NCBI GenBank assembly: GCA_023245565.1
Contig: JAHFKB010000002.1
Location: 2,534 to 44,879, forward strand
Reading direction: 5' to 3'
DNA: 42,346 nt
Source of the DNA: an archaeon
GTDB taxonomy: Archaea; Nanobdellota; Nanobdellia; SCGC-AAA011-G17; GW2011-AR18
A model generated the notes under the pieces. It did not search any database, was not told the DNA's origin, and was given only the letters and a program-made list of their open reading frames with translations. Below, in pieces: positions 7,720-31,025 of the stretch. The translations under genes and the position numbers were made by a program. Numbering within the stretch: the first letter of the stretch is position 1; the number at the start of each line of letters is the position of its first letter.

Positions 7720-7721
7720 AG

Positions 7722-8751: not shown

Positions 8752-8797
8752 AATGTTAGAATAAATTCCTGGTTTTTAAAGCTTATTAATTAAAGCA

Positions 8798-8953: not shown

Positions 8954-8972
8954 GTAGTTTTGAGTATTTTAT

Positions 8973-8984
8973 TTCTTTTATAAA
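8973..8984 (-). promoter_or_regulatory. Candidate TATA box for the tRNA-Ser gene
   Basis: TTTTATAAAAGA on the reverse strand, about 20-30 nt upstream of the predicted tRNA 5' end. Confidence 0.3.
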
Positions 8985-9032
8985 ACTTATCTTAGTAATA
9001 AAATATATTAAATAAAGAATATAAACAAAATT

Positions 9033-9692: not shown

Positions 9693-9801
9693 AGTTAAAT
9701 GAAAAAGATAAGTGTTTTTAAAGCTTTCTTAGTTGTAAAACCTAATATTTTATTTAGAAAATTTATATTATTTAGTATTATTAATAAGTAATAAACATTA
9801 A

Positions 9802-10209
9802 TTATCTATCTCTTAATCTATAACCAGTTGAAAAACCTACAGAATTATAATCAAACATAGTTTTTATCTTTCCCATATTGTTTGGTTTTTCTAACATTTC
9901 AATTATTTCCACCCAACAACCAAAACCTTCTTGTCTATCTAGAATTAATCTTTCAAGAATCTCTTCTCTTGTACCTTCAGAAAATTGTGTCCTTGCGTAT
10001 ATTTTATCAAAATTTAAAGATAAACTGCCAGGAACAGAATTATTAATAAATAAAAGCCCTTGGAATTTAACTTCCATTATAGGTTCATATCCTTTTCTGC
10101 TTGATTGTTTTCCTAATGGAAATAAATTCAAAATTATTCTTCTTAGTTCTTGAGCAGAATAAAATTTTGTGGGTTCTATAATTTTCTGAAAATCTGTTAT
10201 TAATTCCAT
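9802..10209 (-). CDS. Hypothetical protein inserted between tuf and rps10
   Basis: 135-aa ORF with its own AT-rich upstream region. No motif recognised. Confidence 0.45.
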   Translation of the reverse strand: MELITDFQKIIEPTKFYSAQELRRIILNLFPLGKQSSRKGYEPIMEVKFQGLLFINNSVPGSLSLNFDKIYARTQFSEGTREEILERLILDRQEGFGCWVEIIEMLEKPNNMGKIKTMFDYNSVGFSTGYRLRDR

Positions 10210-10285
10210 AAACTTTAAACAAGAAAATCATTTATAAACTTTTATAATAATATAATAATAAATAATAAAGAAAAAAAGAAGTAAT

Positions 10286-11566: not shown

Positions 11567-11703
11567 CTTTGAATATTCCCCCGTTAATTGAATAAAACTT
11601 GGATCTTGAAGGTATTTATAAAGTTTACGCTAGAATTAGTGTTTTGAAAGATTATTTCATAGTTTAAAGATATATTTATTAATTATAAAATTTTTATAAG
11701 ACT

Positions 11704-12141
11704 ATGAAGACTAAAGTAGAAGAAATAACTTTAACATCTAAAGGAAATAGTATAGAAGGTGCTTTTTCTAAAATTGCTTTATCAATGTTTGAGATAGTTA
11801 TTAATCCTTCAGATATAGAATTAAAAGTTACAAAAACTGTTATTATAAGATCTAGAGATCTAAAGAATTTATTATTTCAATTTTTAAAAAGATTATTTGA
11901 TCTTGCAAATGGAGAATTATTTGTTTTGGGTATAGTTAAACAAATTACTATAGAACAAATTTCTAGTGAATATTTATTAAATTCTGTATTAATTGGTGAT
12001 AAAATGCAAGCTAATTATGAAGTAAAGGACATAGTTAAACAAATTACTGATAGAAATATTATTGTTAAAGAAGAAAGAGATGGTGTTTTAACTCAAATTA
12101 ATATTGTGGTTGAAAGAAGGAATATAAAAGATGAAGTATAA
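11704..12141 (+). CDS. Divergent archease-like protein lacking the N-terminal HTAD motif
   Basis: Aligns by eye with the downstream archease (SIEGAFSKIALSMFEIV vs TLEKVFENSALALEEIM; LKNLLFQFLKRLF vs EESLLYDFLSELI). It has EEITL where the archease has HTADI. It overlaps the next gene by 11 nt. Confidence 0.5.
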   Translation: MKTKVEEITLTSKGNSIEGAFSKIALSMFEIVINPSDIELKVTKTVIIRSRDLKNLLFQFLKRLFDLANGELFVLGIVKQITIEQISSEYLLNSVLIGDKMQANYEVKDIVKQITDRNIIVKEERDGVLTQINIVVERRNIKDEV

Positions 12142-12553
12142 ATTTTTTCCACATACTGCTGATATTATTTTTGAAGGTTATGGTAAAACTTTAGAAAAAG
12201 TTTTTGAAAATTCTGCATTAGCATTAGAAGAAATTATGGTTGATTTAGAAAGTTTAGATAAAAAAGAAACTTATCAATTAGTTTTATTTTCTAAAGATGA
12301 AGAAAGTTTGCTTTATGATTTTTTATCTGAACTTATTTTTATAAAAGATACAGAAGGTTTATTGTTTAAAGAATTTGATATTGTGATATTACATAAAAAT
12401 AAACAATATGAATTGATTGCTAAATGTGAAGGCGATAATATAAATTCTGATAAACAAAAATTAGGAGATGATGCGAAAGCAATAACTTTACATGAATTTT
12501 CATTAAAAAAAGAAAAAGGTAAATGGACTTCAAGGGTTTTAGTTGATATTTAA
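12131..12553 (+). CDS. Archease
   Basis: N-terminal FPHTADIIFEGYGKTLEKVFENSALAL and C-terminal KAITLHEFSL blocks typical of archease. 140 aa. Confidence 0.8.
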   Translation: MKYKFFPHTADIIFEGYGKTLEKVFENSALALEEIMVDLESLDKKETYQLVLFSKDEESLLYDFLSELIFIKDTEGLLFKEFDIVILHKNKQYELIAKCEGDNINSDKQKLGDDAKAITLHEFSLKKEKGKWTSRVLVDI

Positions 12554-13858
12554 TTATTTATGTCTAGCTTGAATTCTTATTTTGTATTTTTCATATTTTT
12601 GTGCTAGAGGATTTTTTCCTGGTCTTATTCTTACTAATTTATTTCCTTCACCAACATATGCTGAAAAACGTCTTGTATAATCTTTATGTTTATTAAAAAA
12701 TCTATCAAAGGTTTTATCTAAAGTTTCATTTCCTGGATTACATTCAAACCAATCTATTTCTTTACCAACACTTAATCTTGAACATGTTCCTAGTGGCATT
12801 ATTTTTTCTTTAGTTGGAATTATTGTTAGTTTAGTTTTGACCTCTTCAGGTTTTTTTAGATCTTCTGGTTTATTTAAATCTGGTAACTGAATTAAGTCTG
12901 GTTGTGAATGTCCTAAATCTAAATTATTTAAATTAGAAACTTTGTTTTCTAATTTTTGATGATTATATTTTGAAAAAAATATACTACCAAATCCAACTAA
13001 ACCCACAATAGTTAAACCAGAAACAACCGCGTGTCTTCTTGTATCGTTAACTAAAACTATGTTTTCTTTTCTTATTAATTCATGATTTAATAAAACTTTA
13101 TCTTTAGGTATTCTTAAGTCTGTGTGTGAAACAAAATCTGTTTTTTTATCTGAACTATAACAATATACTCTAACATCTCTTAAATGATAATGATCTTTTT
13201 CTTCAGTAATGCTTTTTGCTAAAACTTGAGTTACATTTACTGAACCAGGATCAATACCACGATCTAAATATGCAGGTGAATCTAAAAATCCAACTAAAAA
13301 ATTGCCTGGTTTTTTAATTAAATATCCTTGTTTTTGAGTAATTTTTATTGGTGCCCAAACTTTCTCTGTTTTAAAATAACCTTCTAGACCAGTTCCTTTT
13401 TTTTCAGTAGTAAATCCAAAATATTCTCTTTTTAATCCAAGTTCATTTGCTAAATCTAATTTTTTTATTGGATCATCAATAAAATCTTGATTAATTTTCA
13501 TTCCTTCTAATCTTATTTCATAATTTCTATTTTTATTTTCACAATAAAGTTCACTACCTTTCTCAAAAATAAATCTCCCATTTATTGAATAAATTAGATT
13601 ATGATCTTTATTGTCATAACGCACTAATTTTATTCTATCATTACCTATAATAAAACCCTTAACTTTTGTAATTCCTCTTTCAAGGTGTTTATTATTTATT
13701 GATTTATAAATTTGTGATCCCATATATTCTAAATAACCAAAACTACCAGAATCTAAACTCTTTCTTGGATCTATTATTGATTCACCTGCTAAATATAATT
13801 CTAAAGTATCTGACATTTCAATAGTTTTATGTCTTCCTATATCTTTTCTTTCTTCCAT
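12554..13858 (-). CDS. Hypothetical single-pass membrane protein (paralog A)
   Basis: One TM helix (VVSGLTIVGLVGFGSIFF), a linker with LPDLNKPEDLKKPEE, and a basic ~90-aa C-terminal domain with two Cys. Shares this architecture with the upstream gene. Confidence 0.5.
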   Translation of the reverse strand: MEERKDIGRHKTIEMSDTLELYLAGESIIDPRKSLDSGSFGYLEYMGSQIYKSINNKHLERGITKVKGFIIGNDRIKLVRYDNKDHNLIYSINGRFIFEKGSELYCENKNRNYEIRLEGMKINQDFIDDPIKKLDLANELGLKREYFGFTTEKKGTGLEGYFKTEKVWAPIKITQKQGYLIKKPGNFLVGFLDSPAYLDRGIDPGSVNVTQVLAKSITEEKDHYHLRDVRVYCYSSDKKTDFVSHTDLRIPKDKVLLNHELIRKENIVLVNDTRRHAVVSGLTIVGLVGFGSIFFSKYNHQKLENKVSNLNNLDLGHSQPDLIQLPDLNKPEDLKKPEEVKTKLTIIPTKEKIMPLGTCSRLSVGKEIDWFECNPGNETLDKTFDRFFNKHKDYTRRFSAYVGEGNKLVRIRPGKNPLAQKYEKYKIRIQARHK

Positions 13859-13864
13859 TTTAAT

Positions 13865-14995
13865 TTATCTCTTGGCTTTTATTAAATAATATTTATTTTT
13901 TGAATGTTTTTTATCTCCTTTTCCACGTACTTTTATATTTTTTAATTTATATTTTGGATTTTCTTCTATAAATCTTTTACGTGCTTCTTTTGGAGAATAA
14001 CTTTCTCTTGGACACCAATATAAATCTTCATTTCCAGATTTTCTATTAAACTCACAATATTTTCCAGACTTTTCTGTTAATTTAATAATAGGTTTTGGAG
14101 CTTTAACTTTTTCTTCTAATTTATTAGCCATATCTATAGTTTGTATCATATCTGCTGGGCCACTAATGTCTGAAGGTTTATTTAGATCAACAGACTTTGG
14201 AATATTAATTAATAAATCTTGATTATTGTTATTTGCTGGGGCATTATGATAAATTCCTAATCCTGCACAAATAATAAGTCCTGCTCCTGTAGCTCCACCA
14301 ATAAAATAAACTTTTTTTGGAATTGATTTTGATATTTGAACATCTTTATCTTTTAAATATTCTATGTCAAAGAAAATTTCTTTAAGATCATCAAATGGTT
14401 GATCTCTAAAATTCAAGGCTGTATGTCTAATTCCTCGACTTTCAATTTGATAAGTTCCAGAAACCAAATAAATATTAAAATTATCATTATGTTCTACTTT
14501 AATTTTATTAATTAGTACTGGTCCTATTTTACAATTTTCTTGTAATTCTAATCTATTTCTAAAAGCTTTTTCTTCAATTATTCCAATTTGATGATTTTCT
14601 TTTAGACCTTTATAATTCATAGGTATAAAATCTTTATCATAATCATTTATTTTTTCATGAGGATTAATTACATTAAATGCTGATGAAGGTACTATATAGG
14701 TTTTATATTTTTTATAAGCTGTAGATGAATTTTCTGATCCTAATTCTTGTTGTTGAAATTCAACACAACCAGATAATGTATATAAAACACCAACACCAAT
14801 TTTATATCCAGAAATTTTTGCTTCTTTAATTAATAATTTACTATCACCTAAATTTATTTCAGGTATTCCATCTAATATATTTTCTAGACCTCCTTCTAAA
14901 TAAATATTTCCCACTCTAAATTGATCTTTATTTGGAATATTTTGTTCATCAAAATTTCCTATATAGAGTGGTATTTGTTTCATTTCTCTACCCAA
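13865..14995 (-). CDS. Hypothetical single-pass membrane protein (paralog B)
   Basis: One TM helix (VYFIGGATGAGLIICAGLGIY), a linker with VDLNKPSDISGP, and a basic C-terminal domain with two Cys (YCEF...DLYWCP). Confidence 0.5.
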   Translation of the reverse strand: MGREMKQIPLYIGNFDEQNIPNKDQFRVGNIYLEGGLENILDGIPEINLGDSKLLIKEAKISGYKIGVGVLYTLSGCVEFQQQELGSENSSTAYKKYKTYIVPSSAFNVINPHEKINDYDKDFIPMNYKGLKENHQIGIIEEKAFRNRLELQENCKIGPVLINKIKVEHNDNFNIYLVSGTYQIESRGIRHTALNFRDQPFDDLKEIFFDIEYLKDKDVQISKSIPKKVYFIGGATGAGLIICAGLGIYHNAPANNNNQDLLINIPKSVDLNKPSDISGPADMIQTIDMANKLEEKVKAPKPIIKLTEKSGKYCEFNRKSGNEDLYWCPRESYSPKEARKRFIEENPKYKLKNIKVRGKGDKKHSKNKYYLIKAKR

Positions 14996-15906: not shown

Positions 15907-16821
15907 TTATTCTTTTTTAAAACCCTGATATGCTTTAGAAACTTTTTGTGACCAGAAACTTGGCAAAGAATTTGAAATAAAACCTCTGTAATCATGAGAG
16001 TAAATATATGCTAAGCCTTTCTCTTCTTTTAATTCATCAAATTGTTCTTGAACTTCTTCATAAATATCTTTTATTTTTTTTCTTTCAAAATCTTTTTGTA
16101 ATAAGGAAGATGGTTTTAATATTAGGAAATCTGCTTGTCTAATTGCATTTATTTCTATATTTGCAGAATTTTGAGAAATAAATAAAACTGAAAGATCTTT
16201 ATGCCTTGCAACTAATAAAAGGTTTGTCAAAAATTTATTTTTATCAGACATACTTTCTCTTGAGGAAAATTCTATACCAGATTCATCTGCCAATAATGCA
16301 GAACCATTATCTACATCATCAATAGATTCAATTACATTAATCCAAGTTGGTAGATCATTAGCATTAAATCCTAAAGCATAAATTTTTTTATTTGTTTTTA
16401 ATTTAAATTGTTCTAGTAAACACATACCTATAGCAGATTTACCAGTTCCTCTTGCACCAAGAATTATTCCTATTGTTGAATTTGAAGTAAATACTTTTTC
16501 TAAAAATTTATTAAAATCTCCTTGCTTTGTTTTAAGAATTTTAAAATCTATTGGTTCTGGATCATTTTTTATCTTTCCTTTTTTAACTTCAATTTTTTCT
16601 TCTTTAACTTCTTTATTTTCTGATTCTTCATTATTTTTAATTTCTTTATTATCTTGAGCTTTAGTTTTTTTATTTTTTATTTTTTTAATAATGTAAGCTA
16701 TTCCTAAATAAATACCTTTGAATATGTAAAATACTCCTAAAAAAATATAGTAAAATAACTTGTAAATTAATTTTGAGATGAATTTTATTACTTTTACAGA
16801 CTTACTCTTTCTTTTTGGCAT
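15907..16821 (-). CDS. Membrane-anchored P-loop NTPase (Zot/pI-like sequence pattern)
   Basis: N-terminal hydrophobic hairpin, then a Lys/Glu linker. Walker A GARGTGKS, Walker B ALLADESG, then RHKDLSVLFISQN resembling the RH-x-G-x-D...TQ block of Zot-type ATPases. Confidence 0.6.
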   Translation of the reverse strand: MPKRKSKSVKVIKFISKLIYKLFYYIFLGVFYIFKGIYLGIAYIIKKIKNKKTKAQDNKEIKNNEESENKEVKEEKIEVKKGKIKNDPEPIDFKILKTKQGDFNKFLEKVFTSNSTIGIILGARGTGKSAIGMCLLEQFKLKTNKKIYALGFNANDLPTWINVIESIDDVDNGSALLADESGIEFSSRESMSDKNKFLTNLLLVARHKDLSVLFISQNSANIEINAIRQADFLILKPSSLLQKDFERKKIKDIYEEVQEQFDELKEEKGLAYIYSHDYRGFISNSLPSFWSQKVSKAYQGFKKE

Positions 16822-18062: not shown

Positions 18063-19502
18063 TTATGCAGATTTTCTTTTTCTAATTTGTAAAAGCTCAT
18101 GTCTTGATGGAGTTTCAGTTATACTTCCAGCTACATCTGGAATAAAACAAGAACCACAATAAGCATTTTTATCATTATGATGGCAATATCTATAATTTCC
18201 ATTATTGTTATCTATTAAAGCTGTAATACTTGGATGCATTGTCATAGCAATTTTAGCATTGTTACCAGCTTGTTTAAAATCATTAGTTCTATCTTTAATA
18301 TTTATATTATCTGTAAAAATATCTAATTGAGAGCTTTCTAAGACACCTAAAGTTTCTTCTACTACATCTTTTCTATTTGGTCTTATTGGTAATAATTGTA
18401 TTCTTGGAAAACATTTTAAAGCTCTTTTAAAAGATTTTTCATAATAAGAACCACCAAATTCTCTAGTAGGATCAACAAGTAAAAATGGAACTGTATTTAC
18501 TCCTGCTTCTAAATACTTAATACCATCTTCTATTCTTTGCAATTGATTTCTTCCATGAGAAAAAGGACCAGACTCATTTTTATCATTACCTAAACTTATT
18601 AATAAAGTTGAATTTGTTTTTTTAAACAATTCAGCAACTCTTTGATCATATTCTAGATATTTTGTAGGCATTACAGCATGTAAATCTGTTTCTAAACAAG
18701 CTTCAAGAGAATTTAATAATTGATTTCTAAAAATAGGTATTCCTGCTTCTACTCTTTTTGCAATTCTTAATACTGTTTTACGTTTTAATCTCTCATTTTT
18801 TAATTCTTTAATTTGATTTATTAAATCATTTTTATCTACGTCATAAATATAAGGATATCCTTTGTGATTACGAACAGCATAACAATAACTACATGAGGCA
18901 TTTGGAGATAATTTTCCATCTTCAGTTATTCCACTAATACACCATTGTGCAAAATCTAAATTTAAATCAAGAATACATGTTGGATGAACATTTTGTTTGC
19001 CTTCTGAATCAATTTTAGCAAGGCCTTTTATTGTTATTACTGCTTTTGATAATATTTCATCAACATATTCTGTTTTAGTTTCAGGCGGAATTATTTGCGG
19101 TTTAAATCTATAGTGTTTTTCTTTTTCTCCAATAATTGTTTGTTTTGGTTCTATTCTTGTATGTTTATTTATATCAAATCTAGCAATTCTCTTTATTAAA
19201 TTTTCATCATTTTTAAATCTAGAAACAATTTCATATTGTATTCCATATCTTGAATCTAATTCAGAAGGTAAAATTTCTTTTGAAGATAAATCAATTACTT
19301 CATCATAACTTCCAGATTTTCTATTAATAATAAAATAATCAATGTTTGATGTATTACCTTTTTTTGTAGTCCAAACAGCATGAGCTATGTGATCTGTATC
19401 TTTTGGTGTTGCATAAACAACTCCTGGATTAGTAGAATAAATTCCAAGAACTTCAATACTTTTTCCACTTTGATCTTTATCTATAAATAAACGACGCATC
19501 AT
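18063..19502 (-). CDS. Hypothetical 479-aa protein; central region resembles SplB-like radical-SAM TIM barrels but has a non-canonical Cys motif
   Basis: C188-x15-C204-x2-C207 (WCISG...ASCSYCYAVRNH), followed by a pattern like COG1533 proteins (MPTKYLEYD..., LLISLG, RIEDGIKYLEAGVNTVPFLLVDP). C-terminal CHH...CGSC cluster. Confidence 0.35.
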   Translation of the reverse strand: MMRRLFIDKDQSGKSIEVLGIYSTNPGVVYATPKDTDHIAHAVWTTKKGNTSNIDYFIINRKSGSYDEVIDLSSKEILPSELDSRYGIQYEIVSRFKNDENLIKRIARFDINKHTRIEPKQTIIGEKEKHYRFKPQIIPPETKTEYVDEILSKAVITIKGLAKIDSEGKQNVHPTCILDLNLDFAQWCISGITEDGKLSPNASCSYCYAVRNHKGYPYIYDVDKNDLINQIKELKNERLKRKTVLRIAKRVEAGIPIFRNQLLNSLEACLETDLHAVMPTKYLEYDQRVAELFKKTNSTLLISLGNDKNESGPFSHGRNQLQRIEDGIKYLEAGVNTVPFLLVDPTREFGGSYYEKSFKRALKCFPRIQLLPIRPNRKDVVEETLGVLESSQLDIFTDNINIKDRTNDFKQAGNNAKIAMTMHPSITALIDNNNGNYRYCHHNDKNAYCGSCFIPDVAGSITETPSRHELLQIRKRKSA

Positions 19503-20276: not shown

Positions 20277-20654
20277 TTAACCAAAATAATCTTCAGCTTT
20301 TTCTTTTAATTTTTCAACTATTGGTTTTTCTTTTTGTTCTTTTTTAACAATTTTCTCTGCTTTTTTAACTGCTTCTGGTTTTTTAATTTCACCAAATTTA
20401 GATTCATAATCTTTTACTACATTATTTAACATTACTAAAAAAGATTTTGCATTAAATGGGGTTAAAATTATTGGAGCATGTCTTAAGAAAATACTTTGAT
20501 GATTTCCTATATCATGCAAATGAGTTACAGATTTAAAATCTAAAACTAATTCATTTGGATTAAAATTAATACTTACTTCATTAGAATAGAATTGGTCTTG
20601 ATCTTTTATTCTTACATTTAATTGTTTTTGTTGTTTAATTTCCTCTTTTGACAT
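20277..20654 (-). CDS. DUF3467-like protein
   Basis: FYSNEVSINFNPNELVLDFKSV ... IILTPFNAKSFLVMLNNVVKDYESKFGEIK follows the pattern I recall for DUF3467. Confidence 0.55.
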   Translation of the reverse strand: MSKEEIKQQKQLNVRIKDQDQFYSNEVSINFNPNELVLDFKSVTHLHDIGNHQSIFLRHAPIILTPFNAKSFLVMLNNVVKDYESKFGEIKKPEAVKKAEKIVKKEQKEKPIVEKLKEKAEDYFG

Positions 20655-21231: not shown

Positions 21232-21342
21232 TGAAAAGAAAAAATATCAAGAAAATAAATAGTAAGGAATTATTACGTTTAAGTAATTTAGTTCTTAATA
21301 GAGACAAAACCCTATTTGATGAATTATCTAGGTGTTAGATGA
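21232..21342 (+). CDS. 36-aa ORF translationally coupled to doc (candidate antitoxin)
   Basis: ATG at 21232. Its TGA overlaps the doc ATG as ATGA (21339-21342). Peptide MKRKNIKKINSKELLRLSNLVLNETKPYLMNYLGVR. Too short to assign a family. Confidence 0.3.
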
Positions 21343-21743
21343 GAGATAAAGTAATTGAAGAATATTGTGAAATATTCAAGAAGATACATAACAAGATAAT
21401 AGAAGAATCTCCAGATAAACACGACTTCAAAGGCGTAAGGGACGAAGGTTCACTTTATCATACAGTCTATGAAATTATTACTAAAATATCTAAAAATGAA
21501 GACTCATTGACAATTGCTGCTTTATGTTATCAAAAGTTTGCAACTAGACATATTTTCCATGAAGGTAATAAAAGAATGGCTCATATGGTTGCACAAATTT
21601 TTCTATTAAATTATAGGGTTGTTATGAAAATAAATTATAATGAAGCTAAAGAGTTTATTTTAAAAATAGCACGAGGAGAAAAAAGTTTAACTGAAATAAA
21701 AAAATGGATTTCAAAACATGTAGTTGATATAGAAAATAAATAA
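21339..21743 (+). CDS. doc: Fic/Doc-family toxin (death-on-curing type)
   Basis: HIFHEGNKRMAHMV matches the Doc variant (HxFx[D/E]GNKR) of the Fic motif. 134 aa. Confidence 0.75.
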   Translation: MRDKVIEEYCEIFKKIHNKIIEESPDKHDFKGVRDEGSLYHTVYEIITKISKNEDSLTIAALCYQKFATRHIFHEGNKRMAHMVAQIFLLNYRVVMKINYNEAKEFILKIARGEKSLTEIKKWISKHVVDIENK

Positions 21744-21755: not shown

Positions 21756-21920
21756 TTACTTAAACATTCCAGCTATTGTTGCAATTGCAACTTTTGCTCC
21801 AGGAGGAAGAAGTGATCCTTTCTCTTTTGCTATTTTACTAACTTTCTTTCTTAATAAATCTGCATTTATTTTTAAACCCGTTTTCTTAAATTCTTTAGAT
21901 TTTCCAATTGGCAGTTCAGA
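21756..21920 (-). pseudogene. Start-less open frame abutting the 3' end of tRNA-Val (possible truncated gene remnant)
   Basis: 54 sense codons (SELPIGKSKEFKKTGLKINADLLRKKVSKIAKEKGSLLPPGAKVAIATIAGMFK*) between an in-frame TGA and a TAA. No ATG/GTG/TTG anywhere in the frame. Confidence 0.25.
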
Positions 21921-21928
21921 TCATAAAA

Positions 21929-22000
21929 TGGGCCCAGCCTGATTCGAACAGGCGACCTACACCTTGTAAGGGTGTTGTCATACCGCTAGACCATGGGCCC
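21929..22000 (-). tRNA. tRNA-Val(UAC), intron-less
   Basis: Reverse strand reads GGGCCCA-TG-GTCT-AGCGGTAT-GACA-A-CACCC-TTACAAG... with T-arm GCCTG-TTCGAAT-CAGGC and acceptor TGGGCCC-A. Clean cloverleaf. Confidence 0.85.
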
Positions 22001-22117
22001 TTTGATAGGCTTTTGAAGAATTATTCCACTTTTAAAAGTTTTCTTTTGTATTTAATTATTAGATATAGTTTAAATTATATAAGTTCTTTTAAAACAAAAA
22101 TTTACTAAAATAACTCT

Positions 22118-22999
22118 ATGAGGGCTTCATTATCAAGATTAGTTACAAATATTTCTTATTTGCATGATAAAGAATTAGTTCCTGATAAAGATAAATTAGA
22201 ATTAAGGATTTCTAAAGCCTCTCTTGAAATTGGTAGAAGTCAACAACTAGATTTTTTTAATATTGGTGAAGGTTCAAGAAAAAGTGAAAGATATAAAGTT
22301 GAATCTGCAAGAAGTCAATTTATTGGTTATATGTATGAACTTTTAATTGCAAGCTTTTATGGTGGAAAGTTATTAAAAACACCTTTAAGAATTGGACCTG
22401 AAAAATTTAGTCTTATGCCTGATGTAGTTGATTTTGAAAGAAAAATATATTGGGAATCTAAATGCATTTCTAATGGAAGACGCTTGCCATTAAGAGATGA
22501 TCAAAGTAATGGCTATAATTATTTACAAAAAACTAAACCTTATCCTAAAATTAACTTTATTATCTGGAAGCATTCTGTAAATGATATTAAAATAAATCTT
22601 AAAAGAAGTGCTGAAGAACTTTTACAAGAGATTTGTTCTAGAACTAATTATGCACTTGTAATGCCAATGAGTTTAATAGCTGAATTTAACGATCTTACAA
22701 AATTAGAAAAACATTCTAGTTTAGTTTATAGATATGTTCCAAAAAAAGAAAAACCTAGTGGAAAAAGAAAACTTGGAAGAAGAGATTGTGTTTATGTAAA
22801 GAATCCTGTTCTTTATGATTTATTAATTTCTCCGGAAAAAGTTATAGAAAAATTAGGTCTTGATCCTGAAAATTATTTATTTAATAGATTAAAGTCTCCT
22901 TTGAATTTTTATGTTAATAATTATTTATTAAGGCCTTTTCCAATATTAGAAATAATTGATAAAGATCATGAAGCTTGGTCTAAAAGTTTTGATATTTGA
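22118..22999 (+). CDS. Uncharacterised PD-(D/E)xK nuclease-like protein, paralog 1 (RecB/Cas4-type motif set)
   Basis: E74 (YMYELL), D102 (MPDVVD), E113-x-K115 (WESKC), Q129-xxx-Y133 (QSNGY). Aligns end to end with the proteins at 26922 and 27962. Confidence 0.6.
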   Translation: MRASLSRLVTNISYLHDKELVPDKDKLELRISKASLEIGRSQQLDFFNIGEGSRKSERYKVESARSQFIGYMYELLIASFYGGKLLKTPLRIGPEKFSLMPDVVDFERKIYWESKCISNGRRLPLRDDQSNGYNYLQKTKPYPKINFIIWKHSVNDIKINLKRSAEELLQEICSRTNYALVMPMSLIAEFNDLTKLEKHSSLVYRYVPKKEKPSGKRKLGRRDCVYVKNPVLYDLLISPEKVIEKLGLDPENYLFNRLKSPLNFYVNNYLLRPFPILEIIDKDHEAWSKSFDI

Positions 23000-23873
23000 T
23001 CTTGTGCTTTTTTGATTTTTTAGTTTTTCTTTTATGATACTTGTGTGCTATGTATAAAATAATAATTATAACTAAACCCCCATATAAATATGCTGAAGGT
23101 ATTCCATACTCTTCTTCTTTATATTGAATTCTTAAAAAATTACCTGTTAAATTTCCTAAATTCATTTGGACGCTTGGTTTTAAAATAATTGGAGTTTCTT
23201 TATTTATATCTCTATAATTTCCTATTGTATCTTTATAATTTATATTGATATTTAAGAAAGACCTAGTATTATTTACTACATCTTTATTTAATTTAATAGG
23301 TATTTTGATTGTACTATGATCTCCAGAATTAATTTTTCCAATATAGAATTCTTTTTGGCCTGTTAATTCTAATTTTTCTTGTTCTGGTAAATTTATACTA
23401 ACTTCTTGTGCTGGATTTATTCCTATATTATATATATCTAATAAAATGCTATCTTGGTTATAATAATTTATCTTTAGATCAAAATTAGTTGACACTTCTT
23501 TTATTTTTATATCTATAATTTTTTTATAATAGGTTTTTGGAGTTTCATATATTCTAAATTCTATCTGATAATCGCCAGGAGTAACTTCTTTATCTATGTT
23601 TAATTTATAATGCAGAGTTAATTTTTCTCCTGATCTAAATGTTGTCATGTTGTAAATATCTGTAGATTCATCTAAAATAAATGGTGGTTTTAATTTAAAA
23701 GAAAAATTAAGATCATAAATTGATGATTTAATATTTGTAAAATCTATGTAAATATCTAAAGGTTGACCTTGAATACCATAAAAAATATCTTGTCTAATTA
23801 TAACTTTCTCTTCTTCAGCAAAAACCATATTTAATGATAATAAAAATAATAAAATTATAAACCACATTTTCAT
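22980..23873 (-). CDS. Signal-peptide, C-terminally TM-anchored surface protein (CARDB/COG1361-like), paralog of 25155..26099
   Basis: Signal peptide MKMWFIILLFLLSLNMVFA, beta-rich repeats (GEKLTLHYKLNIDKEVTPGDYQIEFRIY), C-terminal TM plus a basic tail. Confidence 0.55.
   Translation of the reverse strand: MKMWFIILLFLLSLNMVFAEEEKVIIRQDIFYGIQGQPLDIYIDFTNIKSSIYDLNFSFKLKPPFILDESTDIYNMTTFRSGEKLTLHYKLNIDKEVTPGDYQIEFRIYETPKTYYKKIIDIKIKEVSTNFDLKINYYNQDSILLDIYNIGINPAQEVSINLPEQEKLELTGQKEFYIGKINSGDHSTIKIPIKLNKDVVNNTRSFLNININYKDTIGNYRDINKETPIILKPSVQMNLGNLTGNFLRIQYKEEEYGIPSAYLYGGLVIIIILYIAHKYHKRKTKKSKKHKIKYQNF
23599..23634. repeat. 36-nt stretch identical to 25756..25791 inside otherwise diverged paralogs
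   Basis: TTTAATTTATAATGCAGAGTTAATTTTTCTCCTGAT occurs in both genes. It encodes (S)GEKLTLHYKL on the reverse strand. Confidence 0.7.
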
Positions 23874-23903
23874 ATTATTTTATAAAATCTCTAATATATA
23901 AAT

Positions 23904-25154
23904 TTATTCTGATCTTAATGCTTTAACTGGTTTTAATTTTGAAGCTCTGTAAGCTGGTATTGCTCCAGAAATCATTCCTAAGACCATTGAAAATATTAAT
24001 GTAAAAATTATTACTTGTATTGATATTGAAGTTGTAATTGGGTCTCCGCCACCAAAACTAACTCCTAATTTTGGAATTGATATTGCAATTAATATTCCAA
24101 ATAAAACTCCTAAAATTCCACCAACTAAACCTACTAAACCTGAATTAAATAAAAATATTAACATTATATCTATGTTTTTAGCACCTAAGGCTTTCATGAT
24201 TCCTATTTCTTTAGTTCTTTCTAAAACTGAAGTAAACATTGTATTTGCAATTCCAACAGCTCCAACAATTAGAGATACTGCTGCTATAACTCCTAAAAAT
24301 AAAGTAAAACCTGCTAATATTGCAGCTACTTTTTCTTGTATTGTTTTCATAGATAAAATAGTAAAATCTTTTGTGTCTTTATTTACATGTCTTACAACAA
24401 ATAATTTTTCTTCTAATAATTTTTCAACTAGGTCAACTTGATTTTGATCTTTAACTTTAATTGTAATTGAATCATATTCTCTTTCATTTTTATTTAAAAC
24501 TTCTTTTGCAGTTTCAATAGGCATTATTATTTTTCTATCATCAACACTAAAGCCTCCTGCTTTTTTAAGTACTCCGACTATAGTGTAAGGTTTTTCATCT
24601 ATCTTAATTTGTCTATTAAGTGCTATGTCATTTTTAAAAACTTCTTTTGCTATTGAATTTCCTATTACTACTGCATTTTTATCACTTGGAATAAGAAACC
24701 TTCCAGACTCTAGATTTGAAGTTGTTATAAATTTCCAAATTTGTGGATCAACACCATCTATGTTTAGATTTACTGTTTCTCCTAAATAATAAACAGATTT
24801 TGTACTGCTTATTTGAGGATTAACATATAATATCTCTGGAATTGATTTAGATGCTTGGACTTCTTTATCTGTTAATAATTTATTTGTTGTACTTTGAGAT
24901 TGTTCTCCTGGGCGAGATCTACAATTTGGACCTGGACATTCACTGGCTTTATCAAAACCAGGAGTTATTGTTATTATATCTGAACCTAATCCTCCTAATT
25001 GTTTTTGAATATCTTTTTGAAAACCATTTCCAATAGAAACAATAGAAATTATTGAAGCTACACCCATTATAATTCCTATAATTGTTAGCCAGCTTCTTAA
25101 TTTACTATGTATTATAATATTTAATGCTATTTTTAATGACTTTTGTATTTTCAT
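23904..25154 (-). CDS. ABC transporter permease, FtsX/MacB type
   Basis: N-terminal TM, large extracytoplasmic domain, three C-terminal TMs with the EIGIMKALGA FtsX signature. 416 aa. Confidence 0.8.
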   Translation of the reverse strand: MKIQKSLKIALNIIIHSKLRSWLTIIGIIMGVASIISIVSIGNGFQKDIQKQLGGLGSDIITITPGFDKASECPGPNCRSRPGEQSQSTTNKLLTDKEVQASKSIPEILYVNPQISSTKSVYYLGETVNLNIDGVDPQIWKFITTSNLESGRFLIPSDKNAVVIGNSIAKEVFKNDIALNRQIKIDEKPYTIVGVLKKAGGFSVDDRKIIMPIETAKEVLNKNEREYDSITIKVKDQNQVDLVEKLLEEKLFVVRHVNKDTKDFTILSMKTIQEKVAAILAGFTLFLGVIAAVSLIVGAVGIANTMFTSVLERTKEIGIMKALGAKNIDIMLIFLFNSGLVGLVGGILGVLFGILIAISIPKLGVSFGGGDPITTSISIQVIIFTLIFSMVLGMISGAIPAYRASKLKPVKALRSE

Positions 25155-26099
25155 TTAATCTTCTTCATTTGCTTTGTTAATTTTTCTTTTGTAATAAATT
25201 ATTACAGCTATTAAAATTACAGCAAGTATTAGTGAAGTGTATATAAAAACTTTGTAATTATTATTTATTTGTTCAGAAGTATCAATCTTGGTTGTATATC
25301 CTGTAAGATCACTAAAGCCTTTTTTTATTTGTTGTGTCATTATTATTGGAATTTCTTTATTTATTGTTCTTCTATTTCCTATTGTATCAGTATAATCTAT
25401 TTGTAAGTTCAATATCTTTTCTTGATTGTCTTCATAATTTAATTTTGGTTTAACTAAAACATTAAGCAATGTATAATCTCCTGAATTTAGATTTCCAACA
25501 ATGTAAGATGGTGAACCTATTAATTCAAAACTTTCTTGTTCTGGAATTTTTACAGTTATTGAATTGGCTGAATTTTTTCCTATATTTGATATTGCTATAG
25601 AAAGTCCTTCTTTACTAACTTGCTGCATTGCTACATCAAAGTTGGATGTTACGTCATCTATTTTTATACTAAAGAAATATGGATAATAAATACCATTGTC
25701 TGTATAAGCTCTAAACTCAACTTCATAATTTCCTGGAATTGCGTTTTTATCAATTTTTAATTTATAATGCAGAGTTAATTTTTCTCCTGATTTTAGAGTT
25801 GGAAAATTAGAATTATCAATTGAAGGATCAAGTGAGAAAGGATATTTTAAATTAAATTCAAATCTTGGATTTATTACATCTCCACCAATATTATCAATTG
25901 CCATATAAACATCTATTAATTCTCCAGGATTAGCTGGGAATGGATCTTGTCTTATGTCTTTCATTCTAAAATTAGATATTGCCTCTTTATTTGATTCTAG
26001 ATTATCTTTTTTTTCTTGTGTAAAATTTAATGATGTTTGTGCAAATGCAGAAGAAACTAACATTAAACTTAATAATATAAAAATTATTATTTTTTTCAT
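25155..26099 (-). CDS. Signal-peptide, C-terminally TM-anchored surface protein (CARDB/COG1361-like)
   Basis: Signal peptide MKKIIIFILLSLMLVSSAFA. NPGELIDVYMAIDNIGGD CARDB-like block. C-terminal TM. ATGA overlap with the ABC ATPase gene. Confidence 0.55.
   Translation of the reverse strand: MKKIIIFILLSLMLVSSAFAQTSLNFTQEKKDNLESNKEAISNFRMKDIRQDPFPANPGELIDVYMAIDNIGGDVINPRFEFNLKYPFSLDPSIDNSNFPTLKSGEKLTLHYKLKIDKNAIPGNYEVEFRAYTDNGIYYPYFFSIKIDDVTSNFDVAMQQVSKEGLSIAISNIGKNSANSITVKIPEQESFELIGSPSYIVGNLNSGDYTLLNVLVKPKLNYEDNQEKILNLQIDYTDTIGNRRTINKEIPIIMTQQIKKGFSDLTGYTTKIDTSEQINNNYKVFIYTSLILAVILIAVIIYYKRKINKANEED
25756..25791. repeat. Second copy of the 36-nt identical stretch (see 23599..23634)
   Basis: Same 36-mer read directly in both genes. 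The flanking bases differ on both sides. Confidence 0.7.
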
Positions 26100-26800
26100 T
26101 TTGCCTTTCTCCTATTTGAATACTCTCTTAATACTTTTCCATCTTTTAATTCAATTACTCTTTGAGCATATCTTACTAATGATGGATCATGTGTTACTAT
26201 TACAATGCTTTTATTTTTTTCTTTATTTAAATTTATTAATAATTTCATTACATTTTCTCCTGTTTTTGAATCTAATGCTCCTGTTGGCTCATCTGCTAAA
26301 ATAACATCTGGATCATTTATTAAAGACCTTGCTATTGCAACTCTTTGCATTTGCCCACCAGATAATTGTGTGGGTTTATGATTAATTCTGTCTCCCATAT
26401 CTACAAAGTCTAATAATTGTTTAGCTCTTTTATGCAGTTTAATTGTATTTCCATTTTGAAATTCTCCTGGTATAGCAACATTTTCAAGAGCTGTTAATGT
26501 TGGAATTAAATTAAATTGCTGAAATATAAATCCTATTTTTCTACCTCTTATTTGTGCTAATTTAGATTCTGAAAGTTTTTTTACATCTTTTGATTCTAGA
26601 AATACTTGCCCTTTTGAAGGGACATCTAGGCATCCTACTAAATTCATAATTGTAGATTTACCAGAACCTGATTTACCTGTTATTGCTAGAATTTCTCCTT
26701 TTTTAACTTCTAAAGATATTCCTTGTAGTGCATTTAATTTAATTTTACCCATGTGATAAGTTTTCCAGACATCATTTAATTTTATAATTGGTTTGTTCAT
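26096..26800 (-). CDS. ABC transporter ATP-binding protein (MacB/LolD-like)
   Basis: Walker A GKSGSGKST, signature LSGGQMQR, Walker B ILADEPT and H-loop VTHD. Confidence 0.9.
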   Translation of the reverse strand: MNKPIIKLNDVWKTYHMGKIKLNALQGISLEVKKGEILAITGKSGSGKSTIMNLVGCLDVPSKGQVFLESKDVKKLSESKLAQIRGRKIGFIFQQFNLIPTLTALENVAIPGEFQNGNTIKLHKRAKQLLDFVDMGDRINHKPTQLSGGQMQRVAIARSLINDPDVILADEPTGALDSKTGENVMKLLINLNKEKNKSIVIVTHDPSLVRYAQRVIELKDGKVLREYSNRRKAK

Positions 26801-26921
26801 ATTAAATTTACTTTAAGAAAATTTATAAAACTTCGTAAACTAAGATCATAATGCATGAGATTATTAAATATATATTTAGGCATATAAATGGTTTTAAAAT
26901 AAATATTAGTTAAAATTTATA

Positions 26922-27908
26922 ATGACTAAATTAGAGGAGAGAATAAAGAGTTTATTAGAAAAATATGATCTAAAAACTATAAAGCAATTATCTCCAAGAC
27001 AAAATTCTGTTTTAATTAGTACTCCTCAACAAATATTATTTCATGATTCATCACTTGTTGCTCCAATATTGGAAGATAAAGCAGCAGTTAGTCTTGGTTG
27101 TTTTTATGAATACTTAACTGCTGGAATACATGGCGGTAAACCTTGTAAGCCAATTCATTTTAGACTTAATACTGAGTTATTATTAATTGATGGTTATGCA
27201 AAAACTCTTCAATTATTACCTTCTGAAGGTTTAGGTATAGATGAAGATGATGAAGAAATTGTTACTAGATTTAAAGCTAAACCAGATATTTATGATGAAC
27301 TTACAGGAACTTATTATGAATCTAAAGGTTTAGTTCTTAGTAATGATTGTAATCTCACTTCTGAACAAATTAGAACATATAAGGCTCTACAAACTATTAA
27401 TCAAAAGGAAAAAATAAATTTTGTTATACATAGGCATTCTTTACCAGGTATTAAAAGCAAATGGAGAGGAACATTATCAGATTTAGTTAAAAGTTTATCT
27501 GATAAAACTGTTTACTCTATTGTTTTTCCATTTAGTATTGCATTAGCACTTTATGGTCATGATAATGTAAATTCTGAACTTGTTGAAAGTTTTTATATTC
27601 CTGGAGATAGACATGGTCCTGCTAGATATGCTGCTGTTAAAGACAAAGTAATGGATAGATTATTTTTAGAACCTGATAAAGTTATAGAAGAATTAAATTT
27701 AAATCCTAAGAATTATAGTTATGAAGTCTTTAGATCTCCTGAAAAATATCAAATTATTTTAGATTTATTTCCACCTGGTGAGCCAGTAATACATGAAATG
27801 AATAGTTATCCAATAATGATTATAAAACAGAAGAACCATGATAAATGGGTTAGAAAATTTGTTAGGGACTATTTAAAAGAATTAGGTGTTAATGATATTC
27901 CATTCTAA
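26922..27908 (+). CDS. Uncharacterised PD-(D/E)xK nuclease-like protein, paralog 2
   Basis: E63 (FYEYLTAG), D122 (KPDIYD), E133-x-K135 (YYESKG), Q149-xxx-Y153 (QIRTY). Acidic insert GIDEDDEEIV. C-terminus ...RDYLKELGVNDIPF. Confidence 0.6.
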   Translation: MTKLEERIKSLLEKYDLKTIKQLSPRQNSVLISTPQQILFHDSSLVAPILEDKAAVSLGCFYEYLTAGIHGGKPCKPIHFRLNTELLLIDGYAKTLQLLPSEGLGIDEDDEEIVTRFKAKPDIYDELTGTYYESKGLVLSNDCNLTSEQIRTYKALQTINQKEKINFVIHRHSLPGIKSKWRGTLSDLVKSLSDKTVYSIVFPFSIALALYGHDNVNSELVESFYIPGDRHGPARYAAVKDKVMDRLFLEPDKVIEELNLNPKNYSYEVFRSPEKYQIILDLFPPGEPVIHEMNSYPIMIIKQKNHDKWVRKFVRDYLKELGVNDIPF

Positions 27909-27961
27909 ATTATACTTATTAAAACACATATTCTTTTAAAATTTGTCTTTATACTTATTTT

Positions 27962-28816
27962 ATGGTTAATAATTCAGCTGTAAGACAAAAGTATCTAAGA
28001 ACTGTGGTTTCTAATCTGAGATTTAGTGGCATGAAAACTTTTTCCCCAGTTAATAAAAGTATTCGTGTAAAAATAGAAGAATTTGGAGATTCTAAATTTA
28101 AGAGATCAGCTGTTCTTTCTAAATTTTATGAATATTTAACTGCAGGACTTTATGGTGGAGAACGTGGCCATAATTTAGTTTTAGAAGGAGAAGATGAAGA
28201 AGATGGTAGGCCTGTAAGAATTGATGTTTATGATAAAGATAATAATATTGCTTATGAATGTAAAGCTATTAGATCTGGACGTCATGCTAATTTAGTAGAT
28301 TATCAAATAAATTCTTATAAAGAATTACAGATTAGATATAGGGATTTAAATTTATTATTTGTATTTTATAGACATGGAATTAGAAATATACAATCTACTT
28401 GGAAAGGAAGTCATGAAGATTTAATTTATCAATTACGTTCTAGAGAACAATATTCTTTAATGTTGCCTTTAAGTTTAATTCTTGCTTTACATAATAATAA
28501 CAATAAACTTACATATAGGTGTGCTGGAAATTTAGATATGAGAAGCTCTACATTAGTTAAAACATCTACATTTTCTTACATTGCTAGTGATCCTAAGAAT
28601 TTCATTAGAGATTTAGATTTGGATCCAAGTAATTATTTAGTAAATAAATATATTTTACCTTCATCTATTAGGATTGTTGGAATGAAAGATGATCATAAAG
28701 TTAGTGAAGGAAGAGTTAGACCTTTTCCTATAATTAAAATTTCAGAGAAAAAACAATATCATGGTGTTTTTGTGAAAAAATTACTTAGAGATTATTTAAG
28801 AAATGTTCCTTTTTAG
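27962..28816 (+). CDS. Uncharacterised PD-(D/E)xK nuclease-like protein, paralog 3
   Basis: E57 (FYEYLTAG), D88 (RIDVYD), E99-x-K101 (YECKA), Q115-xxx-Y119 (QINSY). Acidic insert EGEDEEDG. C-terminus ...RDYLRNVPF. Confidence 0.6.
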   Translation: MVNNSAVRQKYLRTVVSNLRFSGMKTFSPVNKSIRVKIEEFGDSKFKRSAVLSKFYEYLTAGLYGGERGHNLVLEGEDEEDGRPVRIDVYDKDNNIAYECKAIRSGRHANLVDYQINSYKELQIRYRDLNLLFVFYRHGIRNIQSTWKGSHEDLIYQLRSREQYSLMLPLSLILALHNNNNKLTYRCAGNLDMRSSTLVKTSTFSYIASDPKNFIRDLDLDPSNYLVNKYILPSSIRIVGMKDDHKVSEGRVRPFPIIKISEKKQYHGVFVKKLLRDYLRNVPF

Positions 28817-29645: not shown

Positions 29646-31025
29646 ATGGAACCTATTATTGGTATTGAATGCCATGTCTCATTAAATACTAAAACAAAAT
29701 TATTTTGTTCTTGTTCTTTAACAGGAAATGAAGAACCTAATTCAAGATGCTGTGATGTTTGTATTGGTGCTCCTGGATCTAAACCTGTATTAAATAAAAA
29801 AGCCATGGAGTATGCTTTAAAATTATGTTTGGCTTTAAATTGTAAAATTGCTGATGAAGTTGTATTTTCAAGAAAAACTTATTTTTATCCAGATATGGGA
29901 AAGAATTATCAGATAACCCAATATGAAATTCCTATTGGAAGTGATGGATACTTAGAAGTTTTTGGAAAGAAAATTAAAATTAAAAGAATACAAATTGAAG
30001 AAGATCCTGCTGCATTAATTCATCAAGGTAATACTGTTTTAGTAGATTATAATAGATCTGGAACTCCTTTATGTGAAATAGTTACAGAACCTGATATGAA
30101 TAGTCCTGAAGAAGCAAGAGAATTTCTTAAAAGATTATTAACTATTTTAAATTATATAAAAATTTTTGATATAAAAAATTGCATTGTAAAAGCTGATGCA
30201 AATGTAAGTATTAAAGGATATGAAAGAGTTGAGATAAAAAATATTAATGGATTTAAAGATATAGAAAGAGCAATAAGCTATGAAATTGAAAGACATAAAA
30301 GTTTAATTAAAGAAGGAAATGGTGTTAAAGATAAAGAAACTAGAGGATGGGATTCTGATAAAGGTATAACTGAATTTCAAAGAAGCAAAGAAAGTGAAGC
30401 TGATTATGGATATATTGTAGATCCTGATTTAGTTCCTATTGATATAAGCAAAGAATTAGTTGAGAAAACTAGAAAAGAATTACCTGAATTGCCACAAGAA
30501 AAATCATTAAGATATCAGAAAGAATATAAAATTAAAAAAGATGATGCTGAAGTCTTAGCTAATGATTATGAATTAACTGGATTACTAGAAAATGCTATTA
30601 AGAAAAAAATAGATCCTTTATTTGCTGCTGAATGGATAAGAAGAGAAGTTACTAGGGTCTTAAATTATAATAAAAAAGAATTAGGTGAAATTTTTATTAT
30701 AAAAAATCTATTAGATGTTTTAGAATTAATACAAGAAAATAAAATTACTAGACAAACTGGACAGAGATTAATGGAATTATTAATTGAAAAAGATATTAAT
30801 GTAAAAGAATATGTTAAAAAACAAGGACTTGAGTTAGTTTCTGATAGCAAAGAATTAGAAGATATTTGCAAGAAAATATTAAAAGAAAATACTCAAGCTG
30901 TGAAAGAATATTTAGAAGGTAATGAAAAATCATTTATGTTCTTAGTTGGACAGTGTATGAGAAGTTCTAAAGGAAAAGCTGATCCTAAAACTATTAATGA
31001 ATTGTTAAAGAAATTAATAAAATAA
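29646..31025 (+). CDS. gatB: Asp/Glu-tRNA(Asn/Gln) amidotransferase subunit B
   Basis: IGIECHVSLNTKTKLFCSCS N-terminus, RIQIEEDPAAL block and C-terminal YqeY-like tail. 459 aa (GatB size, not GatE). Confidence 0.85.
   Translation: MEPIIGIECHVSLNTKTKLFCSCSLTGNEEPNSRCCDVCIGAPGSKPVLNKKAMEYALKLCLALNCKIADEVVFSRKTYFYPDMGKNYQITQYEIPIGSDGYLEVFGKKIKIKRIQIEEDPAALIHQGNTVLVDYNRSGTPLCEIVTEPDMNSPEEAREFLKRLLTILNYIKIFDIKNCIVKADANVSIKGYERVEIKNINGFKDIERAISYEIERHKSLIKEGNGVKDKETRGWDSDKGITEFQRSKESEADYGYIVDPDLVPIDISKELVEKTRKELPELPQEKSLRYQKEYKIKKDDAEVLANDYELTGLLENAIKKKIDPLFAAEWIRREVTRVLNYNKKELGEIFIIKNLLDVLELIQENKITRQTGQRLMELLIEKDINVKEYVKKQGLELVSDSKELEDICKKILKENTQAVKEYLEGNEKSFMFLVGQCMRSSKGKADPKTINELLKKLIK

Follow-up and report, generated by a model that had tools for sequence, protein, structure and literature searches.

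Why does a compact archaeal genome hold three divergent copies of one nuclease-like gene within 6.7 kb? The question is raised by a stretch of 42,346 nucleotides (nt) from an archaeon of the Nanobdellota (contig JAHFKB010000002.1, positions 2,534 to 44,879; hereafter the window), in which three open reading frames (ORFs) at 22118-22999, 26922-27908 and 27962-28816 encode related proteins. The original prediction, made from the DNA letters, regarded them as stand-alone nucleases of defence or of selfish elements, with DNA scavenging tied to an adjacent exporter as an alternative. No known family can claim these proteins: they represent a new family with a new domain architecture in the well-known PD-(D/E)xK superfamily. 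Members occur only in Woese-, Pace- and Nanoarchaeota (DPANN archaea) and in virus-like replication modules, and most genomes carry a single chromosomal gene. In the tiny genomes of DPANN archaea a large share of the genes lacks a functional assignment, and little is known about the replication and repair toolkit of these organisms. As to function, we see about an even chance that these are cytoplasmic, metal (Mg2+)-dependent, RecB-like replication and repair nucleases, which are recruited or regulated through a C-terminal peptide and were locally triplicated.

The three paralogs and their fold

The three ORFs have the positions and lengths originally predicted and are true paralogs, since their pairwise BLASTP E-values (8e-22, 2e-24 and 1e-28, with 27-30% of the residues identical along almost the entire length) lie far past chance. 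Paralog 1 (22118-22999, plus strand, 293 amino acids (aa)) matches the family hidden Markov model (HMM) with an E-value of 2e-77; its catalytic block at 22337-22516 (plus strand) comprises E74, D102, E113-x-K115 and Q129-xxx-Y133 in invariant columns, and the protein ends in ...AWSKSFDI. Paralog 2 (26922-27908, plus strand, 328 aa) carries E63, D122, E133-x-K135 and Q149-xxx-Y153 in conserved columns of a block at 27108-27380 (plus strand). Paralog 3 (27962-28816, plus strand, 284 aa) lies 53 nt downstream of paralog 2, and its block at 28130-28318 (plus strand) comprises E57, D88, E99-x-K101 and Q115-xxx-Y119. The signature E...(P)D-11-ExK-14-QxxxY has the same spacing in all three proteins, together with the upstream helix Glu, as had been claimed.

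An exhaustive HMMER search with a profile of the three paralogs was run over 1.84 billion cluster representatives (50% identity clusters). The family comprises 364 proteins at E <= 1e-3, 284 at E <= 1e-10 and 78 at E <= 1e-30; among the 150 matches listed, most are 250-375 aa long and match over most of their length. A word-seeded homolog search with paralog 3 alone recovered only paralog 3 itself. In an alignment of 131 full-length members, D88, K101 and Q115 (paralog 3 numbering) are invariant, while G53, E57, G65, G66, P87, E99, Y119, H138 and several C-terminal prolines are conserved in at least 90%. One Cys column reaches 60% of the members, all other columns are at or below 32%, and no aligned Cys is common to the window paralogs.

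Pfam, NCBIfam and PADLOC scans of the three paralogs gave no match at E <= 10, and PHROGs at the same threshold gave one meaningless 24-residue match (E 0.014). None of the three has an SSB or OB match in Pfam. When each of the 131 members was scanned against Pfam at E <= 1, only sub-threshold families of the restriction-endonuclease fold were returned. Tox-REase-7 (PF15649) was the sole Pfam family with more than two members matched (faint matches in 7 of 131, best E 0.031); the others were Tox-REase-9, DpnII-MboI and MamI. The Cas4, PDDEXK_1, YqaJ, Exo5, NucS and Hjc families of Pfam were not among these matches. Sequence-profile matches of the paralogs to PDB entries were not credible and were rejected: EscO (E 0.011) is a coiled-coil-like match, and the matches to designer PPR proteins are artefacts in which many tiny repeat matches to 'kPDVVt' are summed.

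Models of paralogs 2 and 3 were built by AlphaFold2 with the 131-sequence alignment and are confident, with predicted local distance difference test scores (pLDDT) of 86.3 and 92.9 and predicted template modelling scores (pTM) of 0.86 and 0.91, respectively. In the model of paralog 3, E57 lies in helix 46-64, D88 in strand 84-91, E99 and K101 in strand 96-104, and Q115 and Y119 in helix 113-125, after which comes a strand (130-138) ending at H138. Behind the nuclease core (about residues 46-170), the chain forms a beta-rich C-terminal domain (about 184-262) and a long helix (264-280) before it ends in the tail. The layout of helices and strands in paralog 2 equals that of paralog 3, and in both models the conserved motifs fall on alpha1, beta2, beta3 and alpha2 of the canonical alpha-beta-beta-beta-alpha-beta core. 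With these models, membership of the PD-(D/E)xK superfamily and the RecB-type motif set (E, D, ExK, QxxxY) are well supported, and the model topology suggests the geometry of the active site. Nuclease identity is strongly supported by the invariant catalytic residues on the correct predicted fold; activity itself we infer.

Foldseek found no significant PDB neighbour for either model. The best PDB match for both is DpnI (E 0.037 and 0.11, TM-score 0.2-0.3, root-mean-square deviation 7-8 Å; non-significant), and the best BFVD match reaches E 0.003 with a TM-score of at most about 0.3. The top ranks are nearly all PD-(D/E)xK enzymes, again non-significant: DpnI, the YqaJ-like phage exonuclease 3k93, Cas4 SSO0001, Hjc and EcoRV, with HincII, RecE, Exo5, SOX and the cap-snatching endonucleases of bunyaviruses and influenza among further matches.

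The RecB-family nucleases (Cas4, AddB/RecB, lambda exonuclease/YqaJ, RecE, Dna2 and Exo5) share the ordered motifs of the new family: the first core helix supplies a Glu, beta2 the hhh-D, beta3 the E-x-K and the next helix the Q-xxx-Y. Several of these enzymes (3k93, 4ic1, 3h4r and 7lw9) are among the best non-significant Foldseek matches. However, HMM scans detect no relation to their Pfam and NCBIfam models (for the three paralogs, even at E <= 10), TM-scores stay at or below about 0.3, and the new family adds a beta-rich C-terminal domain without recognisable PDB counterpart as well as a tail like that of single-stranded DNA-binding proteins. A four-cysteine Fe-S module is universal in Cas4 (PMC5704561), whereas the alignment columns of the new family contain none; the proteins are therefore RecB-like but not Cas4. 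The original prediction of an uncharacterised PD-(D/E)xK family devoid of an Fe-S cluster is thus borne out, and the predicted folds place the motifs as expected.

Two other PD-(D/E)xK enzymes show partial likeness. In DpnI, the top PDB match, an N-terminal catalytic domain precedes a second domain as in the new family, and Hjc recurs many times among the non-significant Foldseek matches. Neither has sequence similarity to the family or a significant structural match, and Hjc is only about 130 aa long and has neither the QxxxY helix motif nor the C-terminal domain. The faint matches to Tox-REase-7 are all far below threshold, and the family members, unlike that toxin family, stand alone, without a toxin-delivery domain or a conserved adjacent immunity gene. 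Altogether this defines a sizeable lineage-restricted nuclease family that is covered by no current model library and has no solved structural relative.

Taxonomic distribution and genomic context

All members with source names are DPANN archaea (Candidatus Woesearchaeota and Pacearchaeota). One genome per GTDB species was scanned with a degenerate DNA pattern of the catalytic block (sensitivity about 55% of the members), and the matches were filtered by the family HMM with E < 1e-20 defining a true member. True members occurred only in metagenome-assembled genomes labelled Woesearchaeota, Pacearchaeota, Nanoarchaeota or "archaeon". The same pattern located 81 loci in JGI metagenomes, 68 of which have true members. 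Pattern loci in bacteria contained nothing or weak look-alikes (Streptomyces with E about 1e-4 and one Parcubacteria protein with E 2e-8). Four of the weak pattern matches (one Streptomyces, one Parcubacteria and two archaeal) carry no Pfam annotation; being unannotated themselves, such matches give the family no name.

The Streptomyces look-alike is a conserved protein of 340-390 aa encoded at seven loci of Streptomyces genomes (L022, L028, L032, L037, L051, L058 and L065). Its N-terminal domain is unannotated, and a PD-(D/E)xK block at the C-terminal end, TPD(I/V)YD...YEAKG...Q(L)xDY, has the spacing of the archaeal family. The protein has no Pfam match; judged by its sequence, this architecture resembles that of modification-dependent restriction enzymes.

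Dereplication at 90% identity left 84 distinct genes. More than one copy per locus was found only in the window genome (W), in the genome JACPCE010000021.1 (L; loci L001 and L043), which like W has three copies, and in the RIFCSPHIGHO2_02_FULL_30_43 genome with its relatives (M; loci L016-L018, L049 and L090), which has two copies at a contig edge. The three copies of L are contiguous. All other loci have a single copy; as these counts were made per fetched locus, each at most 8-14 kb long, distant extra copies are possible in other genomes. At least four independent assemblies supply the M contigs, and all of these break off 130-190 nt upstream of the paralog 2-like gene, at the place expected for paralog 1, which suggests strain heterogeneity or a repeat at that boundary.

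The commonest neighbour of the family is the RNase HII gene. All 13 candidate downstream ORFs in reference-genome loci are RNase HII (PF01351, best E 8.5e-48), encoded on the same strand as the family gene with gaps of -4 to 53 nt. Among the 69 dereplicated genes with enough downstream sequence, RNase HII lies directly downstream of 17 (about 25%). The pairing spans family members that are 24-40% identical, while their RNase HII partners are 60-70% identical. In four reference loci the order is family gene, RNase HII and SMC, and in one locus (L008) Pyr_excise and MGMT genes lie upstream of the family gene. Other recurrent neighbours encode aminoacyl-tRNA synthetases, including the leucyl (LeuRS), alanyl (AlaRS) and glutamyl/glutaminyl (GluRS/GlnRS-type) enzymes, and glycosyltransferases. 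Apart from RNase HII we saw no small gene conserved downstream, and genes of restriction-modification, cas, toxin-antitoxin or immunity type do not recur near the 84 dereplicated homologs.

Approximately 8% of these homologs (about seven loci) are located in phage-like replisome modules. In loci L013 and L014 the family gene overlaps the end of a SNF2 helicase gene; a primase gene comes after it, and genes for a FEN-type 5'-3' exonuclease and a DnaB-like helicase come before it. Homologs of FEN, DnaB or primase also adjoin the family gene in L072, L075, L076, L085, L099 and L116. A cellular gene, standing in the order tRNA-splicing endonuclease, LeuRS and family gene, is the nearest relative of the L013 copy. 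L013 (positions 1-12270) and L014 (Logan accessions SRR17165162 and SRR17165173) are a virus- or plasmid-like contig of 34-40% G+C, in which small same-strand ORFs are followed by a Pol I-type FEN, a 434-aa protein, the DnaB-like helicase, the SNF2 helicase, the family nuclease and the primase; it is perhaps a Woesearchaeota virus or mobile element. A close-relative search of IMG/VR returned no relative of this contig and none of the family protein P0014.

C-terminal tail, divergence and function

The second recurrent property of the family is its C-terminus. Of the 152 retrieved members, 113 (74%) end in Pro-Phe (VPF in 48, IPF in 32 and LPF in 13), with Asp/Glu as the commonest residue class at positions -4 to -6; among dereplicated genes with intact C-termini, the ending occurs in 58 of 78. 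No other ORF ends in Pro-Phe in the window and the 19 loci checked. The similar ends of paralogs 2 and 3 (N-D-I-P-F-COOH at 27891-27905 and N-V-P-F-COOH at 28802-28813, both on the plus strand), noticed originally as a possible partner-docking peptide, are therefore real and family-wide, and do look like such a peptide. Paralog 1 is tail-less, as are its two orthologs (P0005 in L001, 52% identical, and P0004, 61%). The tail is also missing from a short subfamily of 214-262 aa whose members often end in GMRGLER(K/T) (loci L040, L045, L057, L068, L083, L117 and L144). The gene of this subfamily abuts or overlaps the RNase HII start (gap of 0 or -4 nt), which suggests translational coupling.

The family consensus (D/E)(D/E)(V/I/L)PF-COOH equals that of the C-terminal tip of bacterial SSB (the protein that binds single-stranded DNA), where an acidic run and (I/L/V)-P-F stand at the free C-terminus, usually after a low-complexity linker; DDDIPF is the conserved motif of the SSB interaction hub (PMC5872125). 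In contrast to SSB, the family tail is borne by a nuclease fold and not by an OB-fold protein that binds single-stranded DNA, and its hosts are archaea. The best functional analogy for a nuclease with its own docking tail is NucS/EndoMS, the mismatch endonuclease of archaea and actinobacteria, in which an N-terminal dimerisation and DNA-binding domain precedes a C-terminal RecB-like nuclease that is activated through a clamp-binding peptide of about five residues at its C-terminus (PMC8228993). Both are archaeal proteins of two domains, one of them a RecB-like nuclease, and both finish in a very short C-terminal peptide. However, the domain order is reversed, the nuclease coming first in the new family; there is no HMM similarity; and the acidic-(V/I/L)PF tail is neither a PCNA-interacting peptide (PIP) nor a beta-clamp motif.

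In these DPANN archaea, the RNase HII proteins end in a minimal PIP-like peptide, QxxLxxF (QKKLEF, QKRLSEF, QATLGDF, QRRLDF and QKKLF, in L009, L025, L027, L033, L044, L045, L047, L053 and L057). Because the RNase HII of the same organisms ends in this way, the nuclease tail differs from their usual PCNA peptide.

Rates of divergence were compared among W, L and M, whose GatB proteins are equally distant from one another (82-85% identity). In the slot of paralog 1, W and L are 52% identical, and no value with M is available owing to the contig end. In the slot of paralog 2, identities are 29% (W-L), 33% (W-M) and 26% (L-M); in that of paralog 3 they are 29% (W-L), 28% (W-M) and 55% (L-M). On the rate scale of the family, one would expect 52-55%, and about 29% stands out as an outlier. 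The paralog 2 proteins of W and L are reciprocal best hits in spite of their 29% identity, and all proteins of that slot have an enlarged insertion between beta1 and beta2; together these indicate positional orthologs that diverged, or were replaced, extraordinarily fast. In paralog 2 of the window this insertion is lineage-specific and acidic (about residues 75-115) and is disordered in the model (pLDDT below 50 at 89-101). Neither paralog 2 nor paralog 3 of the window has a relative above about 33% identity in our collection. Low identity of the three copies had been taken as a sign of old duplications, but it proves nothing of the kind, since positional orthologs are equally divergent between genomes with GatB at 82-85%. 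Five of the six paralogs have P0008, a generic Woesearchaeota member, as their best or near-best outgroup match; this fits a triplication within the lineage with subsequent acceleration.

What the genes do is suggested by where they stand. A role in replication or repair is inferred from the neighbourhoods, that is, RNase HII, SMC, repair genes and viral replisome cassettes, and the docking role of the tail from the SSB and NucS analogies. The nuclease would process DNA ends, flaps or branched intermediates in replication-coupled repair or in the processing of Okazaki fragments or ribonucleotides. Its flexible acidic peptide ending in (V/I/L)-Pro-Phe-COOH would dock it on a partner, or a partner would regulate it through the peptide; candidates are a single-stranded DNA-binding protein, the sliding clamp and RNase HII itself. 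The tail might thus act as the SSB tip does in recruiting clients, with NucS as the precedent for a nuclease that has its own clamp-binding peptide. In the window lineage the gene would have moved beside gatB and undergone tandem triplication, giving one tail-less and two tailed copies, and an ABC-transporter operon would later have been inserted between copies 1 and 2. The last eight residues of paralog 2, with a pLDDT of 70 compared to 93-98 in the preceding helix, fit a flexible peptide.

Several observations weigh against this proposal. The last four residues of paralog 3 follow its helix directly and keep a pLDDT of 88, so that an intramolecular contact or role may be possible for that tail, and the RNase HII of the same organisms carries a different, PIP-like C-terminal peptide. 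No nuclease of known substrate matches the family significantly in sequence or structure. RNase HII adjacency, seen in only about a quarter of the members and absent from the window, may partly reflect shared gene-order ancestry. Finally, copies 2 and 3 are hypervariable between closely related genomes, and sequence change across the whole family is much faster than in the housekeeping genes beside it (24-40% identity versus 60-70% for RNase HII). Core replication or repair enzymes do not usually change at such speed, which is seen more often in conflict-related genes.

These rates are one argument for the view, close to the original one, that the nucleases of the window lineage, or of the whole family, serve in virus defence or belong to selfish or virus-derived elements. 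Copies 2 and 3 might then diversify in an arms race, and the SSB-like tail could take the nuclease to viral forks. The divergence of paralog 2 between all pairs of genomes and of paralog 3 between W and the other two, the isolation of both window copies, the fast evolution of the family, the homologs in virus-like replisome modules, the Fic/Doc and PBECR2/DUF2283 genes that flank the window triad, the faint Tox-REase-7 similarity in seven members and the break of independent M assemblies just upstream of the paralog 2-like gene all speak for it. The wider family speaks against it: its 84 dereplicated homologs are single copies among housekeeping genes (RNase HII, SMC, LeuRS, AlaRS and GluRS/GlnRS-type), no restriction-modification, cas, toxin-antitoxin or immunity gene accompanies them repeatedly, and PADLOC at E <= 10 recognises none of the paralogs. 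At the locus itself, there is no integration signature, the toxin-antitoxin-like neighbours are not kept in L and M, the tRNA adjacency occurs only in the window, and the place upstream of gatB is fixed in all three genomes. Homologs elsewhere without copy-number expansion or an accessory-island context are what the original prediction had itself named as a refutation. We therefore abandon the defence island as an explanation of the family and rate a conflict system as unlikely overall, while such a role is conceivable for the window lineage on account of its hypervariable copies. Another model makes the three paralogs subunits of one nuclease, one tail-less and two tailed, which arose by subfunctionalisation of a homo-oligomeric ancestor; the tails would make contact either with the tail-less subunit or with an outside partner, and the model is compatible with a replication and repair role. 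PD-(D/E)xK nucleases are commonly dimers, trimers (lambda exonuclease) or larger rings (Cas4 SSO0001), the catalytic residues are kept in all three copies, and the order of one tail-less and two tailed copies with short gaps recurs in two genomes, with two tailed copies in the third. Yet most genomes have one copy, so that an oligomer would normally be homomeric, and subunits of an obligate complex rarely fall to 26-33% identity where GatB retains 82-85%. On balance a hetero-oligomer appears quite improbable.

The exporter-coupled alternative, in which secreted nucleases would scavenge DNA in association with the adjacent ABC and surface-protein operon, draws on the physical adjacency in the window and on a MacB/ABC operon located 2.3 kb from a homolog in L011/L012. 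No other family member has a related ABC ATPase nearby. An exporter thus occurs near the family gene in two of about 30 lineages, only one of them besides the window lineage, and in none of 127 further neighbour genes. Inspection of the three paralog sequences revealed no hydrophobic N-terminal signal sequence, the operon is on the opposite strand, and it is absent between the contiguous copies of L001. This alternative is hardly credible. 

Returning to the replication and repair nuclease, the RNase HII gene pair and the viral replisome cassettes provide a functional anchor for the family. The SSB-tip-like tail is unexpected on an archaeal nuclease; if it is a docking signal, its receptor would reveal how nucleases are organised at the forks of these archaea and possible viruses. 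A bolder version, which we consider a long shot, is that Woese- and Pacearchaeota and their viruses use an SSB-tip-like code on a RecB-like nuclease and that the tailed window copies diversify or are replaced at the rate of a host-virus conflict. If true, this code would be an unrecognised recruitment system in archaeal replication and repair, placed on a nuclease rather than on a single-stranded DNA-binding protein, and the window nuclease would target viral replisomes, or be targeted by them, through tail mimicry. In any case, the window array, locally triplicated and with two of its copies hypervariable although the chromosomal site is fixed, offers a compact natural experiment in paralog diversification.

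Genes around the triad

The family genes are located just upstream of gatB in W, L and M; in the window, gatB occupies 29646-31025. On the far side of the array, a DUF3467 gene (20277-20654 in the window, minus strand) is common to W and L. A Pfam scan also identified a PEGA-domain protein among the genes adjoining the triad. A Fic/Doc gene at 21339-21743 (PF02661, E 7e-9) confirms one part of the toxin module proposed originally. The other part is much less certain: the ORF at 28882-29178 matches PBECR2, of BECR/RelE-like fold, just below the Pfam cut-off (E 8e-6), and that at 29175-29399 matches DUF2283 weakly (E 0.0097). In L001 the interval between the triad and gatB contains instead a 300-aa protein with an AbrB/MazE-type N-terminal domain (5354-6256) and a 673-aa Ser/Thr protein kinase (6236-8257). 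Since these genes replace the PBECR2/DUF2283 pair of the window, the interval is variable among close relatives.

The tRNA-Val gene (21929-22000, minus strand) ends 118 nt before the start of paralog 1, as had been noted. No tRNA was found in the seven homologous loci scanned, so the adjacency is unique to the window, and no att-like repeat of tRNA-Val was found in the window; on these grounds the idea of an integrated element was rejected. A TTG-started 66-aa ORF (21908-22108, plus strand) that runs antisense across tRNA-Val is almost certainly no gene.

Copy 1 is parted from copies 2 and 3 by a minus-strand operon at 22980-26800, annotated by Pfam as a CARDB-like surface protein, a MacB-type permease, a second surface protein and an ABC ATPase. 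As the three paralogs are contiguous in L001, the operon splits the array in the window genome only. Paralog 1 and the first surface-protein gene (22980-23873) converge and share 20 nt at their 3' ends. The surface proteins encoded on the minus strand at 22980-23873 and 25155-26099, on either side of the MacB permease, are paralogs of each other: their genes share three collinear DNA segments that are 70-81% identical at a constant offset of 2157 nt. Each carries a signal-like segment at its N-terminus and a transmembrane segment at its C-terminus, and each matches CARDB, NPCBM_assoc or Big_8 weakly.

In agreement with the original description, no helicase, methyltransferase or cas gene occurs among the 20 window ORFs scanned with Pfam, a set that leaves out smaller ORFs outside 20-31 kb. 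G+C content is uniform across the window at about 25%, and the remainder is ordinary chromosome with genes for aEF-1alpha, an amino-acid permease, a DHH/DHHA1 protein, ribonucleotide reductase and an S51 peptidase. Four large minus-strand ORFs of 304-479 aa (12554-13858, 13865-14995, 15907-16821 and 18063-19502) have no Pfam family at E <= 1e-4.

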